Shown: positions 42,118 to 50,287, numbered from the stretch's first letter. The stretch: 64,000 nucleotides of DNA from an uncultured Spirochaetota bacterium (GCA_963835575.1 CAWIGG010000004.1:928001-992000); one strand, 5' to 3'. Notes: a model not told the origin generated them from the letters alone. Made by a program: numbers and translations.

Positions 42118-42646
42118 CATCCGGAATTATTATAAGCTGACGCTTGAAAGAAAAATCTATCTCATCGCTTTTCTTGCCGCCCTGTCGGGCATCTTTTCCG
42201 TCCTGGACGCGATGATCCCGAAGCCCATCCCTTTTGTCAAAATAGGCATTGCCAATATTGTCAGCCTCATCCTTGTCCGGGAAGACAAACTTCTTCTGGC
42301 CCTGAATGTGGCGGTTTTAAGGACAATTGTTTCATCCCTCTTTATCGGGACTTTCCTTTCCTATACGTTTCTCCTCAGCTTTACCGGGGCGGTTGTGTCC
42401 CTTCTATTTATGTGGCTGTTTTTCAAAATTTTCGGGAAAAATCTGTCCGAAGTCGGGCTTTCGGTGATCGGGGCCTTTTTTAACACAGCGGCGCAGGGGC
42501 TTCTGGTCTTTCTCTTCTGGAGCTACGACAGAGGAACGCTATTTCTTGTCTCCATTCTGATCCTGGCAAGCCTTGTGAACGGCATTATCATCGGCTTTCT
42601 GGCGAAAATGTTTTATAAAGAGGCGGAGAAAATTCCCACTGAATAA
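42101..42646 (+). CDS. Gx transporter / heptaprenyl diphosphate synthase component I family
   Basis: P.PIPFVKIGIAN, LS..GA, SVIGA..N..Q; usual partner of NusG-II genes. Confidence 0.85.
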   Translation: MQLLNDIRNYYKLTLERKIYLIAFLAALSGIFSVLDAMIPKPIPFVKIGIANIVSLILVREDKLLLALNVAVLRTIVSSLFIGTFLSYTFLLSFTGAVVSLLFMWLFFKIFGKNLSEVGLSVIGAFFNTAAQGLLVFLFWSYDRGTLFLVSILILASLVNGIIIGFLAKMFYKEAEKIPTE

Positions 42647-42647
42647 C

Positions 42648-42990
42648 TTCACCACCACAAAGAGCACTAAGAAACACCAACTGGAGTTATACCTTTCTTT
42701 ATTGTTTAATTTAATATTTTGATCAGTATTTCTTTGTTCTAATATCCGATTGTTCACGCGGATTAACGCGGATTAGGTGGATTTCATAGGATTTAGTTTT
42801 ACTCAAAGCCGCCTTTACACTTTTGCCCGGCGCATCATCTTATGCAGATGATTAGTAATTGGGATTGATTGTGGGCTGTGCCCGGTAGACAAGGAATTTT
42901 AATATAGAATTCTTGAATAATTTATAAAAGCTGTTTTGCAGAACCCAATTGAGCAGGATGGGCAGGATTTGGAAGGATAAACAGGATTAT
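42648..42990. repeat. cluster of degenerate ~9-mer repeats
   Basis: cacaaagagcactaagaaacac; cacgcggattaacgcggatt; caggatgggcaggatttggaaggataaacaggatt. Confidence 0.6.
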
Positions 42991-43005
42991 GGATATTTAA
43001 ATTGT

Positions 43006-43035
43006 TTGCATACGATGGGGTGAAAGGAGTATAAT
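43006..43035 (+). promoter_or_regulatory. sigma70-type promoter facing the cassette (Pc-like)
   Basis: TTGCAT-18 bp-TATAAT, 40 bp before the GTT core site. Confidence 0.55.
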
Positions 43036-43119
43036 GTTTAGGAAGTAAATTGATATTAGTAGCGTATATTAATAGTTCTACGCCATGCCACACGAATTAT
43101 AATAAAAAGGAGTAAATTT

Positions 43120-43911
43120 ATGAATAAGCAAATATTGCCAATTCTTATAGCTTATTATTCATTTTTATTTGGTTCATCAATAACAATATTTAAAGATTAT
43201 ATTCAAAAGCATGTTTTTACATTTTTTATTGTTGTTTCAATACTTTGTATAATACCTTTGTTCGTTTTTATTCTTATTAAATTATCTGCTTCATTCGCAA
43301 AATTATTTAGAATTTTATTATTTTACTCTCTTAAAATAAATACATTTTCAATAATAGGTATCTCTGTATTATTATTCTTTTGTGTTTTAATGACAATTAA
43401 TTATTTGAATAAATATTTAAATATTGATCTTATTAATTTTAATATCATTATTCTTAATATCATTTTTATTTTATATTTTATATTTTTTATAAATAAAAAA
43501 ATAAGATTTTTTGAACCTAAAGGACTTCTAATTCAAGAATTTGGTCATATTGAAATATATCTATATCATAAAGGAAAATTACGACACATACCAGATCCAC
43601 CAACTTTACAACTGCTTGGTTATTCAATAAAAGATGTAAATGTAATACCTCATCAAGAATATATTAAATATAAACTTGATTCACCTTTAGAAAGTATTTA
43701 CTCAGTAAAATTTGTTACAATAAATGGAAGACCTGAAATATACATGATAATAAATGGAGAAAAAAGACATATACCAGATGTTGTTACTTTTGATTGGATT
43801 AAAAATGTACGTTCTGAAAAAAGAATTGACAATACATTAGAACCGATTTTAGAAGATAGATTAAATCAATGGAAAACTGGCAAACCATTAAAAAGTTTAA
43901 TCCAGGATTAA
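43120..43911 (+). CDS. hypothetical 4-TM membrane protein with duplicated C-terminal domain
   Basis: AAGGAG RBS; extremely AT-rich; repeats IYLYHKGKLRHIPD / IYMIINGEKRHIPD. Confidence 0.8.
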   Translation: MNKQILPILIAYYSFLFGSSITIFKDYIQKHVFTFFIVVSILCIIPLFVFILIKLSASFAKLFRILLFYSLKINTFSIIGISVLLFFCVLMTINYLNKYLNIDLINFNIIILNIIFILYFIFFINKKIRFFEPKGLLIQEFGHIEIYLYHKGKLRHIPDPPTLQLLGYSIKDVNVIPHQEYIKYKLDSPLESIYSVKFVTINGRPEIYMIINGEKRHIPDVVTFDWIKNVRSEKRIDNTLEPILEDRLNQWKTGKPLKSLIQD

Positions 43912-43939
43912 TATAGGTGTCGCACGGCGTAGAACACGG

Positions 43940-45617
43940 GAGTCTGTCGCAAAAGCTGCCGAATGAATCAGCAATGTCCTATTGAAAATGGCTTTTTTAA
44001 AATTTTATAACTTTCTCGGGTAATATGATCATTCAGTCCGGATTTTAACTGTATCTCCTGCCCCTAATCCTACAATTTAATCCCCAAAGCCGCCATTTTC
44101 CTGAAATTGTACGCAATGCAGACCATATGCCAGATAGTGTTTACACTATCCAGACCGCGGTAGTAAAACCTTCCGAAGTTGAAGTATTCTTTTATCGTCC
44201 CGAAAATGTGCTCGATCAGGCAGGCACGCTCATTGTAAGTTCTTTTACCTTCAATACTCCTAAGCTTTTCCTTCATCTTGCGCCTTAATTCAACCGTTTC
44301 AAAATATTCATACTTTACATTAAACCGTTTGTTTTTTAATGCTTCCAGCTTACCGGCGCAATTTGAAAGCAGCTTGCACTTCCTGCACAACTCGCGCTTT
44401 GGATAGAAACGGTAATTCTTGACTCCCCGATCATTATAAGCTCTTTCCGCGCACATAATCTGGCCTCCGGGGCATTTGATTTTCCTGATATTACCGTCAA
44501 TTATTAATTCACAGTCTTTGGATGTTATTTTATCCTTGTTCTTTCTCTTTTTCGGACTTCCGTCTTCTTCTTTTCCTTCGGGGATATAAAGGTCGATCTT
44601 TTTATCTTCACCGTATTGGATATTATCCGATGTGAAATATCCGGCGTCCAGCGTGAACTTTGTGTCTTCCTTCGGCTCTTCCTGGTGATCCATTACTTCC
44701 TCTATCATCGGGACAGCAAGGTTACGGTCGCTTGCGCAGTCTGATACCATCGCGCCCGTGAGAAATTCATTTTTACTGTCAACGGCGGCCTGGCAATTAT
44801 ACCCGGGGCCGATTGATCCGTTATTCATTTTCATTAACCTGGCGTCTTTGTCTGTCAGGTTTACGCTTTCCGTTTCGTCTAAATTCCTGTCCTCAACTGT
44901 TTTCAGAAATTTATCTATCCCGGATTTCTGCTGTTCAAACTTCTTGAGTTTATTTGCCATCCTTTTGGAATATTTATCATCGGTATTGCTGTTCACCGTT
45001 TCCTGGAGGATTTTTAAGATCTTTTCCTCGATTTTATCCTTTTTATCCCGGAATTCCTTCGCATTCCCCGTGAAATTCCTGTTGGCCGATGCCTTTATCT
45101 TTGTACCGTCTATAGCTTCCAGTTCATAACTGATAAAACCCGATTTCGCCAGAATGTATACCATTTTCCCGAAAATACTAACGATCTCATCCAGGTATTT
45201 ATTGATAAATCTACAGATATTACTGTGGTCAACGGTGGTATTTCCCGCGAGATAAATCGTGTTCAGGTCGTTTTTCATCCTTTTTTCTATTTTACGTGAA
45301 GTGTAAATACCGGACGCGAAGCTGTAAAAAAGGACTTTCAGCATCATTGTAGGGTTGACCGCTTTTGCTCCCGTTGTTTGATTCCGCAGTTTAACGGCAA
45401 ATTCAGCGGGGGAAATATAGCTCTCAACATAATCGTCAATGACTTTGACCAGCGGATTGTTTTCCCTGATTTTGTCGGGATCGACGGTCAGCCAGTAGAT
45501 TTGATCGCGAATATATTTTTTGAATTTCCCCAGCATTTGACACCTCTTAAATATGGTTTTATTATATTCTATCGTAAGTTATGAAAAATGTACATGAAGA
45601 GCTTTTGCGACAGACTC
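43940..45617 (-). mobile_element. IS1182-family insertion sequence, 1678 bp
   Basis: perfect 18-bp IR GAGTCTGTCGCAAAAGCT / AGCTTTTGCGACAGACTC; ACGG duplicated at 43936-43939 and 45618-45621. Confidence 0.95.
44070..45536 (-). CDS. IS1182-family transposase
   Basis: P.MMLK.L.Y....G..SR.IE, IDGTKIKA.A, TD.DARLM, YN.Q, DAGY, IEHIFGTIK. Confidence 0.95.
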   Translation of the reverse strand: MLGKFKKYIRDQIYWLTVDPDKIRENNPLVKVIDDYVESYISPAEFAVKLRNQTTGAKAVNPTMMLKVLFYSFASGIYTSRKIEKRMKNDLNTIYLAGNTTVDHSNICRFINKYLDEIVSIFGKMVYILAKSGFISYELEAIDGTKIKASANRNFTGNAKEFRDKKDKIEEKILKILQETVNSNTDDKYSKRMANKLKKFEQQKSGIDKFLKTVEDRNLDETESVNLTDKDARLMKMNNGSIGPGYNCQAAVDSKNEFLTGAMVSDCASDRNLAVPMIEEVMDHQEEPKEDTKFTLDAGYFTSDNIQYGEDKKIDLYIPEGKEEDGSPKKRKNKDKITSKDCELIIDGNIRKIKCPGGQIMCAERAYNDRGVKNYRFYPKRELCRKCKLLSNCAGKLEALKNKRFNVKYEYFETVELRRKMKEKLRSIEGKRTYNERACLIEHIFGTIKEYFNFGRFYYRGLDSVNTIWHMVCIAYNFRKMAALGIKL

Positions 45618-45890
45618 ACGGCGTTTGCGCTGCGGTGCGTGCTCGTAAACTGCGCGCGCTCCTCGTTGTTATGATAAAAGCAACGAAAAAGAAACTTGAT
45701 GGTTCGCCCTTAAGGTTTAAATAAATAGTTTTGAACAATGATGATATTCACCTGACATCGAGCCGGTCCTGAAATCACTAAAATCCGCTTACAATTGGGT
45801 TTAAAAAAACAGCTTTAATTTAATTTTCAAAAATGATGTCTTTTGTATTTCAGGCGTAGCCCACATCCTTTTCAATTTCCGTGCCCTGGA

Positions 45891-46043
45891 GTTTACCCTG
45901 AGCGAGCGCAACGAGTCGAAGGGTGCAATTCTGTGGCTATACCCCTTTTAGTTCCCCTTCGTGTCTTCCCTTCCTGTTAAATTTCCCCAGTTGGTGCTTC
46001 TTTGTGCTCCCTTCGATACGCCCTATCGGGTTACTCAGGAACC
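45891..46043. repeat. REP-like inverted pair
   Basis: CCTGAG...TCGAAGGG / CCCTTCGA...CTCAGG. Confidence 0.6.
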
Positions 46044-46070
46044 GGCGCGGGGTGAAAATCTGCCTATTAA

Positions 46071-47838
46071 TGGCCCTACTGCAAAAACAATCCTACCGAT
46101 TCATGTACAAAAGTTGCATAACTCGTTATAATATATGCACATGAATCAGAGAGAGGTCAAAATGTTCAAGCTGAATCAGAGACATATAGAACAGGATTTA
46201 TATCCGGTAAGATATGAAATGAACCAGGAAATGAGAGAAAGTTTAAATGAAAGCTGGGCCGGGCTTTTTTACCAGAAAGTTTTCTCAAAAATAAATGAGC
46301 GGAAGTTTGCTCCACTATATGACCCAAAACTTGGTAGGAGTAATTTCCCGGTCAACATATTAGCCGGGCTGGAAATCATGAAAGAGCTATTCTCTCTGAC
46401 CGATGAACAGTTGTTTGAGCGGTATCGATATGATTTATCGTTTCGATACGCGCTGGGATTGGAAGACATCAACGCGCAGCAGATGTCGATCAGGACGTTA
46501 TACTATTTTCGTGCCGCTGTGGCGGAGAATCAGGACGGGCTTTTTGACGTTATATTTGATGAGTTTCGGGATCTTTTAATTGGAGAGGTCGGGATCAAAA
46601 CCGGACTGCAGAGGACAGATTCTGTAATGATTGGGGCCAATATCAAGCGGCTGAATCGGGTTATGCTGTTTCATAAAGTGTTGTCCAATATGGCGGAAGA
46701 TGTTTCCAATGCTGGATTTTCCTTAAGTGAAAGATGTAAGGATTTTCTAAAACAAAATGAGGACGGATTCAGTTATCGACTGAAAAAGGAGAATTACGAA
46801 TCGAAAACGGTGGAAATTGGCGAGGAAATATTCGGGCTGATTACAGAGAACGTGTTTCACAATAAAGTCAGGAAACAAAAGAGTTTCCGGCAGGCAATGA
46901 GACTTTTGCGGGAACAATGCCGGATAGAAAAAGAAGGCAAGGTGACGCTGAAGCTGCCGCGGGAAATCAAAGCCTCATCGATGCAGTCGCCGGTGGACGA
47001 AGACGCGACCTACCGGGAGAAGCGGGGAAAACAGTATGTCGGGTATAAGGTGAACGCGGTTGAAACCTGTGACCCTCAAAATCCGATGCAGGTGATTACC
47101 AGCATAGAAACCGCATCAAATAATGCTGACGATGGGGATTTATTCCGCAGGCAACTATCTAATTTAAAAAAGGAAACGAATATTGAAACAGCGATAAGCG
47201 ATGGCGGTTATAATTCTGAAGACCTTCGGAATGAGAGCGGCGAAGACGTTCAACTGGTAATGAGCGCGATACGCGGCGTCGATCTGGAAGGGATAAAAAA
47301 CAAAGCGAAACTTTCTGAGTATACAGACCCAAAAACCGGCAAATATGGGATGTGTCCGGCGGGAGAAATCCCGAATAGCATTATTGAAAATGAAGATGGT
47401 TCCGTGGTATTGAATTTTGATGTAAAAAAATGTGCCGCCTGCGATAAGAAAGAAAATTGTCTGGCCTGTGTCGGCAAGAAGCAAAGTCGGCTGGTAATAG
47501 ACGCCAAAAGGGAATGGATGGATGAATTTTTGGAATTGATATGTATGGATGCAGGAAAATTTCTGATGGGACTACGCCCTGCCGTAGAAGGATTGATGAG
47601 TTTATTGAAACCAAAGTATTTGAGCGGCAGGATTTTGTTCCGTGGTCTGGTAAAAGTCAAAACCCGCATGCTTTTAAGGGGAATCGGGATTAATTTCAAG
47701 AGATATCGGGGCTATTTGGCTGATAAATCGAAGGCTGCCGCCGACATGGCCTTTGATTTCTTAATCTTTTTCCTTGTGCGGTTGAAAATTTGCCGGAATA
47801 TCCCCTATGCTTGTGTTTGAATTTTTTCAGCAGGGCCA
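46071..47838 (+). mobile_element. DDE insertion sequence, copy 2 (same as 6679-8446)
   Basis: same ends, length and translated protein; TTAA on both flanks. Confidence 0.93.
46162..47820 (+). CDS. transposase (identical protein to copy 1)
   Basis: ORF track translations are identical. Confidence 0.9.
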   Translation: MFKLNQRHIEQDLYPVRYEMNQEMRESLNESWAGLFYQKVFSKINERKFAPLYDPKLGRSNFPVNILAGLEIMKELFSLTDEQLFERYRYDLSFRYALGLEDINAQQMSIRTLYYFRAAVAENQDGLFDVIFDEFRDLLIGEVGIKTGLQRTDSVMIGANIKRLNRVMLFHKVLSNMAEDVSNAGFSLSERCKDFLKQNEDGFSYRLKKENYESKTVEIGEEIFGLITENVFHNKVRKQKSFRQAMRLLREQCRIEKEGKVTLKLPREIKASSMQSPVDEDATYREKRGKQYVGYKVNAVETCDPQNPMQVITSIETASNNADDGDLFRRQLSNLKKETNIETAISDGGYNSEDLRNESGEDVQLVMSAIRGVDLEGIKNKAKLSEYTDPKTGKYGMCPAGEIPNSIIENEDGSVVLNFDVKKCAACDKKENCLACVGKKQSRLVIDAKREWMDEFLELICMDAGKFLMGLRPAVEGLMSLLKPKYLSGRILFRGLVKVKTRMLLRGIGINFKRYRGYLADKSKAAADMAFDFLIFFLVRLKICRNIPYACV

Positions 47839-47875
47839 TTAATAAGCTCTTATAAAAAATTTGTTCAATTTTAGT

Positions 47876-50287
47876 TTAACCCATGATAACTTCAACAGAA
47901 TGGGTTTTACCATCCTCAAAGGAAGGAATGATGTTTCCATTGATTTCCTTTCCGTCAACCTTGACCGAAGAAACGCCTTTATTCTTATGATCCGGATTTT
48001 TTATATTGATCTGGTAGACGGCGTCTTTATACTTCCGCGCGATTTTAAAACCGTTCCATTTTTTAGGGATGCATGGATCGATTTCAAGCCCGTCATAGCG
48101 TGGTTTTAATCCCAGGATATATTTCGTCGCCGATTGGTACATCCATGATGAAGTCCCGGAAAGCCAGCTGTTGCGGGCAAGGCCGAACTGGGGGTGCTCG
48201 TCGCCGAGGATGTTCTGGGCATAAACATAAGGCTCGCATTCATATTCTTCTATTATATCATTCTTGGCGGCGGGATTGATCTGGTTGTAGTATTCAAAAG
48301 CCCGGTCGCCATGGCCGAGAATGGTTTCGGCGATAATGACCCAGGGATTGGTATGAAGGAAAATTCCGCCGTTTTCTTTCGCCCCGGGCGGATAGGTGGT
48401 GATGCCGCCCTTTGTGCGGTCATAGCCGTTAAAACCGGGCGTGCTGAGCTTGATGCCTTTGGAGGTATTCAGCATTTTATTGAGCGATTCCAGGGCCTTC
48501 TCAGCTCTTTCAGGCGTGGCCATACCGGATATCACAGGCCAGGACTGCGCGTTGATGTAGATCTTGCCATGCTTATTCTTATGAGAGCCCAGAGGAGTGC
48601 CGTCGGAGTCAAAGTAGCGGACATACCATTCCCCGTCCCAGCAGTATTTATTGAATGTTTCCTTCAGGGTCTCGTATTCCTGTTTATATTTTAAAGCCGA
48701 ATCTTTATCTCCCAGATACTCGCAGAGCTCAACCATTTCAAGCAGGTCTTTTCCGTAAAGATGCGTATTAAAGAGCGATTCCGCGCCCGTCGGCAGGTTC
48801 ACGCAGTCGTTCCAGTCGGCGTAGCCCAGGTGCGGCAGGCAGTGCTTGCCGGTATCGCTTTTTGTAAATTCGAGCGAACGCTTCATATGGTCCATTACAG
48901 TACCGCTTTCAAGGGGTTTGCCGTTTTTATCCTTTTCATAATAGGGGATGATTTCGCTGAGAAAATCCATGTCCCCCGTTTCCTTAAGGTAAGCCGTGAC
49001 CGATAAAACGATCCAGAGGTGATCATCGCCGTAATACTGCGGCCTGTCCGGCCAATCGACGGTCTCGCCCGCCGAGCCGTCCATGGTCAGCGGATTGAAG
49101 CCATGCATGGCGTTGCCGGCTTTCTTCTGGACCATCATCAGCTTTTTAAGCAGTTCCTTTCCTTCTTCCGGCATCCTGTCGAAAACGGCCATAACATCCT
49201 GTGAGCTGTCCCGGAAGCCCAGGCCCCTTGTGCCCAGCCCAAGCTGATAATAGGAAAGGTAGCGGGACCAGTTTTTTGTAATGAAACACTGCCTGGGATT
49301 ATGCACGTTCAGCATGCTGTTCATATTGGGATCCGGCGTTTCCACTTCAAGTTTGGACAGGTAGACTTTCCAGAACTCCGAAAGCTCATCCAGAGCCGCC
49401 TGGACGTTCTCGGTCTTTCTGTATTTTTCTATTCCAGGCTGGGCTTTCTGCAGGCTTTCATCCTGGCCCAGCTGTGTAATGAATTCTTTTGTTTCGCCCG
49501 GCTTAAGGACGCCCAGTTTATGGAGAAGGGCGCCGATGTTATCGCCCCTGTGCGCCTCATAATTATCCAGGTCCTCATTCTGCAGTGAAAGCGGATTGGC
49601 CCATGTCCCGTATTCGTTATCTCCAAGGAAGCGCTTCCTGTCGGACTCAAATGAAGAAACGGGATAATTTGATGTAAAGAAATTGATATGGGTTTCACGC
49701 CGGAGAAAAGCGTACTGGATAAGGGTCAGAAGGCCGTTTTTCTCGTGCTGGCAGCGTGACTGCATAGTCTGCGGCACCCAGTCCCCGTTATTGAACTGCT
49801 TGACGGCGTCAAAGTGCGTATATTCGACCACGCTGACGGCGTCAATATTGCACTCTTTGTCTGAGACATTTGTAATTTTTATATGGCGTATCTCCCGGCA
49901 GTCATTAATGGGGACAAAGATGGTGCAGTCTGTCCGGATCCCGTAGAATTCGGAAACGATCCTTGTATAGCCCAGGCCGACATGGCATTCATATTTATCA
50001 TATTTATCCAGAGTAGGGACAAAAAAAGGCGAAAATAACTTATAAGAACCGTTCAGCTTGAACCGGAGGTAAAGGGTCTCGCCTTTGAATTCAGATGACG
50101 GCAGCTGCTGTATATATTTGACAATCCTGTTCAGGGAAGGATCTTCCTTGCACAGCAGGGCTCCGCCCGTATGGTCGACAAAACCTCCGAAGGCAAGAGT
50201 GCCGATGTAATTTATCCATTTAACCGGCGTTTTCGGATTTGTGATCACATATTCCTTGTTTTTATCGTCAAAGTAACCGAAATTCAT
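47876..50287 (-). CDS. GH94 glycoside phosphorylase (cellobiose/chitobiose phosphorylase-like)
   Basis: FGYFDD..KEYVIT.P.TP..WINY, GFRDS.QD, DD.LW, ADWNDC, KENGGIF.H, SWLSGT. Confidence 0.92.
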   Translation of the reverse strand: MNFGYFDDKNKEYVITNPKTPVKWINYIGTLAFGGFVDHTGGALLCKEDPSLNRIVKYIQQLPSSEFKGETLYLRFKLNGSYKLFSPFFVPTLDKYDKYECHVGLGYTRIVSEFYGIRTDCTIFVPINDCREIRHIKITNVSDKECNIDAVSVVEYTHFDAVKQFNNGDWVPQTMQSRCQHEKNGLLTLIQYAFLRRETHINFFTSNYPVSSFESDRKRFLGDNEYGTWANPLSLQNEDLDNYEAHRGDNIGALLHKLGVLKPGETKEFITQLGQDESLQKAQPGIEKYRKTENVQAALDELSEFWKVYLSKLEVETPDPNMNSMLNVHNPRQCFITKNWSRYLSYYQLGLGTRGLGFRDSSQDVMAVFDRMPEEGKELLKKLMMVQKKAGNAMHGFNPLTMDGSAGETVDWPDRPQYYGDDHLWIVLSVTAYLKETGDMDFLSEIIPYYEKDKNGKPLESGTVMDHMKRSLEFTKSDTGKHCLPHLGYADWNDCVNLPTGAESLFNTHLYGKDLLEMVELCEYLGDKDSALKYKQEYETLKETFNKYCWDGEWYVRYFDSDGTPLGSHKNKHGKIYINAQSWPVISGMATPERAEKALESLNKMLNTSKGIKLSTPGFNGYDRTKGGITTYPPGAKENGGIFLHTNPWVIIAETILGHGDRAFEYYNQINPAAKNDIIEEYECEPYVYAQNILGDEHPQFGLARNSWLSGTSSWMYQSATKYILGLKPRYDGLEIDPCIPKKWNGFKIARKYKDAVYQINIKNPDHKNKGVSSVKVDGKEINGNIIPSFEDGKTHSVEVIMG

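Follow-up and report, generated by a model that had tools for sequence, protein, structure and literature searches.

The textbook integron has one attI site and one Pc promoter, so that only its first cassettes are expressed. Off-site insertion of cassettes at GWT, with expression from resident promoters, was described by Loot et al. (bioRxiv 10.1101/2022.09.11.507474), and secondary-site integration and loss of intI have been proposed as origins of CALINs (Cury et al. 2016, PMC4889954). In Treponema phagedenis, attC sites occur without intI (Wu et al. 2013, PMC3607928). The IntI insertion has been called essential for integron function (Smyshlyaev et al. 2021, PMC8138268).

Here we analyse a locus in a 64,000-nt stretch of DNA (the window) from the genome of an uncultured Spirochaetota bacterium. 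The genome measures 4.39 Mb, is 94% complete and is called G000; its contigs are called C1 to C7, and the window lies on C4; G005 to G008 are other genomes, and L039 and L040 are fetched loci. An earlier note had read the locus as a solitary integron-like gene cassette with a dedicated promoter and no integrase, and all of the features that it named were found in place when the window sequence was re-checked. From sequence comparisons, we propose that the locus is probably a satellite platform of a non-canonical integron that was served in trans and is now locked by damage to its attC site.

Results

Layout of the window locus

The following features were assigned, numbered from the first letter of the window.

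42662 to 42684, plus strand: outer word-repeat arm of the left bracket, 23 nt, 91% complementary to its inverted partner at 45987 to 46009
42732 to 43005, plus strand: dispersed repeat module that runs into the promoter, with TAATATCCGATT, CACGGAT words, GGGCTRYGCCC and CAGGAT words
43006 to 43035, plus strand: putative cassette promoter TTGCAT-18-TATAAT, one of seven related copies
43063 to 43077, plus strand: attI-like core, with L box CGTATAT, 5-nt spacer TAATA and crossover G/TT at 43075/43076
43075 to 43103, plus strand: 5′ end of the cassette, R′ box GTTCTACG and tail, 23/29 complementary to 43907 to 43935
43120 to 43911, plus strand: cassette ORF, 263 aa, 22% GC, with the RBS AAGGAG at 43107 to 43112
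43907 to 43935, plus strand: 3′ end of the cassette and attC inverse core R″ (GTAGAAC, 43929 to 43935)
43940 to 45617, minus strand: IS1182-family element, transposase at 44070 to 45536, sitting right after the AAC of R″
45618 to 45665, plus strand: left arm of attC, ending after 48 nt; the L′ and R′ arms are missing
45792 to 45865, minus strand: right bracket, where local alignment finds part of the repeat module in inverted and degenerate form
45987 to 46009, minus strand: outer word-repeat arm of the right bracket, inverted partner of 42662 to 42684

The module copy of the right bracket reached a local alignment score of 62, as compared with a mean of 24 and a maximum of 39 in 300 shuffles. 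An Rfam search of positions 42600 to 46200 gave nothing at E 1. Two DNA sequencing runs contained short pieces of the upstream genes and of both IS elements, and the cassette was neither covered nor bridged by them. The second of these elements is a different DDE insertion sequence (46065 to 47846) at the edge of the same island as the cassette; its 561-aa transposase falls below the IS1182 cut-off, and the genome has 12 near-identical copies. REP-like stem-loop remnants occur in the right flank (45880 to 46045), with several matches elsewhere in the genome. A second TATAAT (43098 to 43103), for which there is no good −35 box, lies in the leader of the cassette and could be an alternative start.

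Cassette ends and attC

The 13/14 complementarity between 43075–43088 and 43922–43935 reported in the earlier note was confirmed and extends to 23/29. Like an integron cassette, the window gene has a GTT core at one end and a complementary AAC inverse core at the other, and the left arm of its attC is identical at 48/48 positions to that of a complete attC at C3:4191 and is also identical to C6:425784. On this evidence the window ORF is a real gene cassette, and the 48/48 identity of the attC arm to array copies implies a recent one. Searches with profile HMMs of the two attC arms, used in place of a covariance model, gave 48 left-arm and 46 right-arm matches in the genome, a few of them weak, in long arrays and at dispersed loci, so that the cassette reading did not fail for want of a similar attC family in the lineage. 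A genome-wide paired-end cassette scan was noisy and was used solely for confirming pairs.

The core GTTCTAC does deviate from GTTRRRY as the earlier note had pointed out, but this is no oddity here: only 17 of the 45 cassette cores counted in the genome conform. GTTGTAC was the commonest (12 of 45), and GTTCTAC itself was absent from those counted.

The right arm of attC was suspected to be missing, and our searches agree. The expected 13-mer, with up to three mismatches, was unmatched in 45666 to 47900, and no right-arm profile match lay nearby. With the IS inserted and the right arm gone, the window has no complete attC in which R and L boxes could fold; the remnant folds at −13.6 kcal/mol, compared with −48.1 and −35.9 kcal/mol for the complete sites. 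The junction at 45665 reads CTCG/TT, and one idea is that it could be a right G/TT junction, leaving an empty site. What would be its right half makes a poor R box and is not repeated at other array ends.

IS1182 insertion

The IS at 43940 to 45617 (1678 bp) has the characteristics of the IS1182 family: a transposase over the cut-off (NF033551, 308 bits against 270), terminal inverted repeats and a short target duplication, here the 4-bp ACGG at 43936 to 43939 and 45618 to 45621. Six of the eight insertion sites of this IS lie directly after the AAC of an intact attC and the other two after a variant AAC; other IS1182-like elements likewise insert after attC AAC. The last attC was broken in the dispersed G000 loci inspected, and a complete attC almost always had a further cassette start behind it (C2:996885 is an unclear exception). 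We infer that cassettes may persist at dispersed sites only if their exit is destroyed.

Cassette cargo

The cassette ORF has 13 homologues at 28–39% identity and 33 representatives at E 1e-30. It belongs to no Pfam or NCBIfam family, and 13 family members searched against Pfam gave nothing below E 0.07. No relative was confirmed among 560 candidates in genome contigs, and a protein atlas search gave no usable match. Prediction (model pLDDT 76.5) gives four membrane helices together with a small α/β domain, which is present as two repeats. In fold, the model weakly resembles EccB repeats (E 3.6e-4, TM 0.26), and its match to an endolysin cell-wall-binding domain was not significant (E 0.36). 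Our low-confidence guess from the model is that the cargo could be a membrane-anchored envelope-binding protein.

The earlier note had held that homologues never found in cassette arrays would count against its reading. Cassette ends were present at two of three fetched homologue loci (L039 and L040), and those of the third, L038, were unclear. The L039 homologue lies directly behind an attC and an integrase of the type found in G000 (47% identical). The integrase frame at L039:3795–4958 passes through an attC-like hairpin without a stop and ends beside a cassette start.

Large proteins (P0015, P0042, P0052 and others) contain as many as eight copies of the C-terminal repeat of the ORF, which has 1420 representatives at E 0.001. 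Two further likenesses span two genera: closely similar 203-aa ORFs in L106 (from G006) and at C2:1630577–1631188 of G000, and a toxin-antitoxin-like cassette start in L106 and at C3:3534 of G000.

Integrases and arrays of the genome

As the earlier note had stated, the site has no integrase. With tblastn at E 10 nothing was found within 6 kb, and the locus is not a complete integron. In the same search, 11 of 13 dispersed first-cassette junctions, that of the window among them, were free of integrase-like matches over 6 kb; of the other two, one has a 31%-identical Xer-type gene and the other a match at E 8.5.

Two kinds of tyrosine recombinase head cassette arrays in G000 and are oriented towards them, one on C2 and the other in three copies on C1, C6 and C7, of which the C1 copy carries a stop. 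The C1/C6/C7 element looks mobile from its ORF list, in which we read a relaxase and ParA. The array-heading recombinases score 212–214 bits with TIGR02249 (cut-off 265) and 238 and 216 bits with NF040815 (cut-off 220); no canonical IntI over the TIGR02249 cut-off was found in the 94%-complete genome. Where IntI4 has 69 residues between two blocks, the C2 integrase has 27, and about 42 residues of the IntI insertion are missing; it aligns to XerA without that gap. The IntI that the earlier note had supposed to lie elsewhere has candidates in this genome, but they are XerA-like enzymes without the IntI-specific insertion and not canonical IntI. The attC hairpins of the arrays are long (about 150–240 bp), and on the proposed reading an enzyme without the IntI insertion would have to recombine hairpin attC sites. 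Within the cassette array at C6:409300–411300 lies a reverse-transcriptase ORF, the flanks of which presumably resemble a group II intron.

The attI-like core and dispersed junctions

The upstream junction at the window reads CGTATAT-TAATA-GTT and has the L box, spacer and G/TT of a simple attI site. Compared with the integrase-adjacent attI on C6, GCGTATATAAAGA/GTT, the window junction GCGTATATTAATA/GTT agrees at 14/16 positions. C6 and C7 have different first cassettes behind identical upstream DNA, which fixes the crossover at AAAGA/GTT. When inverted, the R box of the cassettes appears to come close to the L box CGTATAT, which would be expected of a simple site. Within two mismatches, nine genomic sites ending in GTT were found, including two attI copies and the window.

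Nine first-cassette junctions have the common pattern C-D-Y-W-TAT-N4-A/GTT. In leave-one-out ranking, eight of the nine were in the top 10–43 of 120,722 GTT sites and the ninth was at 211. The 13 nt before the window GTT, left out of training, ranked 43 of 120,722 and fell in the top 0.09% among GTT sites of equal AT content. The core motif (31 matches) recovered two cassette junctions that had not been used in building it, C2:1660085 and C6:144153. The motif is common, as 344 genomic sites score at least 9 bits before a G.

The genome has 13 integrase-free first-cassette junctions, one of which is the window, and the description of the cassette site as solitary did not hold in kind. This count includes C2:1631225, in which the core is partly deleted, and leaves out C5:366225 (4.6 bits, a low score) and the core-like sites C4:599179 and C4:357102, at which no cassette end was seen. 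Arrays and dispersed loci have cassettes and cores in common. The same core also follows the integrase in G006, G008 and G005, and a poorer one in G007.

Upstream palindromes accompany most true attI sites, the C2 true attI being without the distal pair. No accessory palindromes were supported upstream of the window core (p 0.12 and 0.47), and beyond the core the window had no similarity to true attI (p 0.88 and 0.89). The distal pair is kept in only 2 of 14 dispersed G000 candidates, C2:2028353 and C6:171585.

Cassettes that lack an ORF, about 430 and 295 bp long, are present in many copies (C6:424454–425622, C7:1977–4636 and C2:2031347–2034106). An ORF-less cassette of 395 bp is the first cassette at the C2 attI and also at the integrase-free site C2:2028353.

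Putative promoter family and repeat module

The promoter-like pair was confirmed, with TTGCAT at 43006–43011, a spacer of 18 nt, TATAAT at 43030–43035 and 39 nt to the GTT at 43075. It does precede the cassette, but it is not dedicated in the sense of being unique, as seven copies lie on a dispersed repeat module. Support for this putative promoter comes from its conservation across copies and not from its match to consensus: the −35 box has 3/6 consensus positions, and a generic promoter scanner does not list it. The copies end in TTGC-N19/20-TATAAT and are those at the window, C5:158987, C2:1250505, C4:370748, C2:1631280 and C2:480397 and a split copy at C2:1658630/1660034. Five of the seven are followed by an intact core and a cassette start 22–39 bp downstream; in a sixth a cassette is present and the core is partly deleted, and C2:480397 has no cassette start. 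The spacers of six copies were more alike than shuffles (6 of 2000), whereas the stretch from the −10 box to the L box was not significantly alike among them (363 of 2000). Promoter and core as one copied unit was rejected on this result, and their spread as a unit is not proven. The core motif with GTT followed within 60 nt at 4 of 12 module-linked TTG-N20/21-TATAAT sites, as compared with 3 of 545 other promoter-like sites, one of the three being the IS256-split module copy.

The 5′ part of the repeat module has 83 profile matches in the genome and was not found in 11 family genomes. The module lies upstream of 10 of the 13 dispersed junctions, in one case only when an inserted IS is allowed for, and a cassette lies behind 10 of the 83 module copies; four of these ten links are circular, as they served to train the profile of the module, and another three came from scans of the DNA behind modules. 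Among independently found junctions, three of six were module-linked, compared with 15 of 235 low-GC ORFs that have a module upstream. Some AT-rich genes that lie within module brackets have no cassette ends. None of 34 other genomes of the order had the strict promoter-plus-core pattern.

Several other module copies were observed. One on the minus strand at about 61437 in the window precedes an AT-rich 239-aa ORF and has no cassette start. At C2:1658630–1660085, an IS with a 416-aa transposase, which we take to be IS256-like, has interrupted a sister promoter and contributes a perfect TTGACA located 17 nt upstream of the original TATAAT, giving a hybrid promoter before a cassette. A second promoter type, TTGACA...TAAGAT, is found on two copies, C4:599179 and C6:171585, each followed by a core; at the former no cassette end can be seen, and the site may be empty or eroded.

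The option of the earlier note in which an attI-like/Pc landing pad relies on an integrase from elsewhere is supported. A chance secondary site of the attG/SALIN type is an unlikely alternative, in which an integrase picks a core-like chromosomal sequence and there is no heritable landing pad; AT-rich, repeat-bracketed intergenic islands would tolerate insertions, and selection would keep those behind a promoter. The 344 high-scoring core-like sites, the non-homologous and variable promoter-core intervals (22–39 bp), the lack of accessory sites at the window and the position of C6:144153 directly after a housekeeping gene, without a module, are all compatible with chance, as is the finding that resident promoters express up to 10% of off-site insertions (Loot et al., 10.1101/2022.09.11.507474). 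Against chance stand the intact core within 39 bp of five of seven copies of one promoter, compared with two chance-like cases among 544 other promoter-like sites, and the two or three cassettes that several satellites carry. The consensus also extends over about 15 bp and is not the 3-bp GWT of attG (10.1101/2022.09.11.507474).

Relative genomes

A core-plus-cassette-start pattern had nine matches in G000 and ten in G006, with none for the control in either, and one or two matches in eight other genomes of 35, several of them by chance. G006 has 11 copies of a TTGACA-18-TATAAT promoter that is unrelated to the G000 promoter, at least eight of which are followed by a core and cassette start 92–382 bp downstream (eight of the ten listed). 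Its one integrase match above 50% identity is interrupted by stops, and the G006 promoter had no match upstream of the G006 integrase. Two G006 satellites keep the last 27–30 integrase codons between promoter and attI, and several keep a full attI. Read from their sequences, the G006 satellites are copies of the full platform; as such they support the satellite concept, yet keep alive the possibility that the window is a trimmed integron.

According to this latter explanation, which we consider rather improbable for the window, a fragment with the attI core, the first cassette and half of the attC either lost its integrase and accessory sites or was moved into the brackets. The integrase codons and full attI sites of the G006 satellites agree with it, as do the distal palindrome pairs retained at C2:2028353 and C6:171585, and capture of a fragment would explain the broken terminal attC of the dispersed G000 loci inspected. 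At the window, however, there is no integrase remnant nearby. In three relatives the genes upstream of the window locus are conserved and are followed by different genes, and no integrase was recognised in the ORF lists after the orthologous upstream gene in any of the three, the downstream gene differing in each. The G000 promoter was found upstream of neither the C2 nor the C6 integrase, for which reason we rejected it as an integrase's own promoter left after a deletion. Moreover, the 48/48 attC arm marks a recent cassette, whereas the core would need erosion. The decayed integron that the earlier note had offered as its other option is a lesser possibility: decay is seen in G006, but the window locus has no integrase remnant within 6 kb and no accessory attI palindromes.

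That the GC-rich ends are brackets of some other word-repeat gene capture, with an incidental GTT/AAC match, is very improbable and largely refuted. In its favour, GxxExxY genes and AT-rich genes that have no cassette ends also lie between word-repeat brackets, but the 48/48 identity to attC of integrase-headed arrays, the cassettes and cores common to arrays and dispersed loci, and the ORF homologue behind an integrase argue against it.

Discussion

The satellite-platform reading would account for the locus in several steps. The genome holds cassette arrays with long attC sites behind insertion-less XerA-like recombinases, which can be read directly from its contigs. An insertion-less enzyme made elsewhere would have recombined a circular cassette into the 15-bp attI-like core at 43063–43077, and with this core 39 bp behind a σ70-type promoter from the repeat module, the promoterless gene would be transcribed. 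As the promoter-then-core layout recurs, the genome would have several small expression slots. An attC-seeking IS1182 would then have inserted behind the inverse core, and deletion would have removed the right arm, presumably in that order. The cassette could no longer fold its attC and would be fixed in place, and the core in front of it may still accept new cassettes.

A broader model is possible, although we put it forward tentatively and with some doubt. In this distributed integron, an insertion-less recombinase would fill many minimal platforms, each a promoter and a 15-bp core, spread by the repeat module, and useful cassettes would be locked by attC-seeking IS1182 elements and arm deletions. 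The window locus would be a finished product of such capture, expression and locking, and G006 an independent version derived from full attI copies. If this is true, many promoter-bearing sites served in trans would allow many captured genes to be expressed at once, and part of the orphan cassettes (CALIN, SALIN) would be platforms and not debris. The aligned junctions give a 15-bp target definition for an uncharacterised recombinase without the domain thought necessary for attC recombination.

Literature searches for repeated promoter-plus-attI heads without an integrase and served by an insertion-less enzyme, covering main texts and few subscription journals, gave CALIN, SALIN and attG and no such system. 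The window locus resembles SALIN/attG in being a lone cassette far from an integrase, probably inserted in trans at G/TT and putatively expressible from a resident promoter; it has a single attC, incomplete, without an integrase and a GTT crossover at 43075 that fits GWT. In the parts of Loot et al. considered here, attG has the consensus GWT and is described as unlike attI, whereas the window target is a copy of the 15-bp attI core, L box included. Also unlike SALIN/attG, the window type recurs behind one promoter family, its attC is incomplete, and the enzyme is without the IntI insertion.

CALINs (PMC4889954) are likewise cassettes without a neighbouring integrase. They are defined by at least two attC sites; the window has one broken attC, and other dispersed loci in the genome carry two or three. 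In that work attI and Pc were searched only as exact class 1–3 sequences, and repeated promoter-plus-core heads are not described in the sections drawn on here. The Treponema integrons (PMC3607928) share an integrase transcribed towards attI and the array, but are reported there with one attI per integron, whereas the present genome has 13 cores at dispersed positions, its attC sites are longer and its enzyme is without the insertion. The enzymes recall archaeal XerA / NF040815 recombinases and the 'integron-like' subgroup of Smyshlyaev et al. (PMC8138268), but insertion-less members here head cassette arrays. A second mobile element at a fixed place in attC recalls the IS1111-attC group and group IIC-attC introns (PMC11187229, PMC3001079), but unlike these, the attC-targeting element here is a DDE IS1182 with a 4-bp duplication. 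IS1182 at attC was not found among the titles and abstract openings of the literature on IS1182, attC and integrons. To these known systems, the window locus would add a core-only version of the platform and a testable target consensus.
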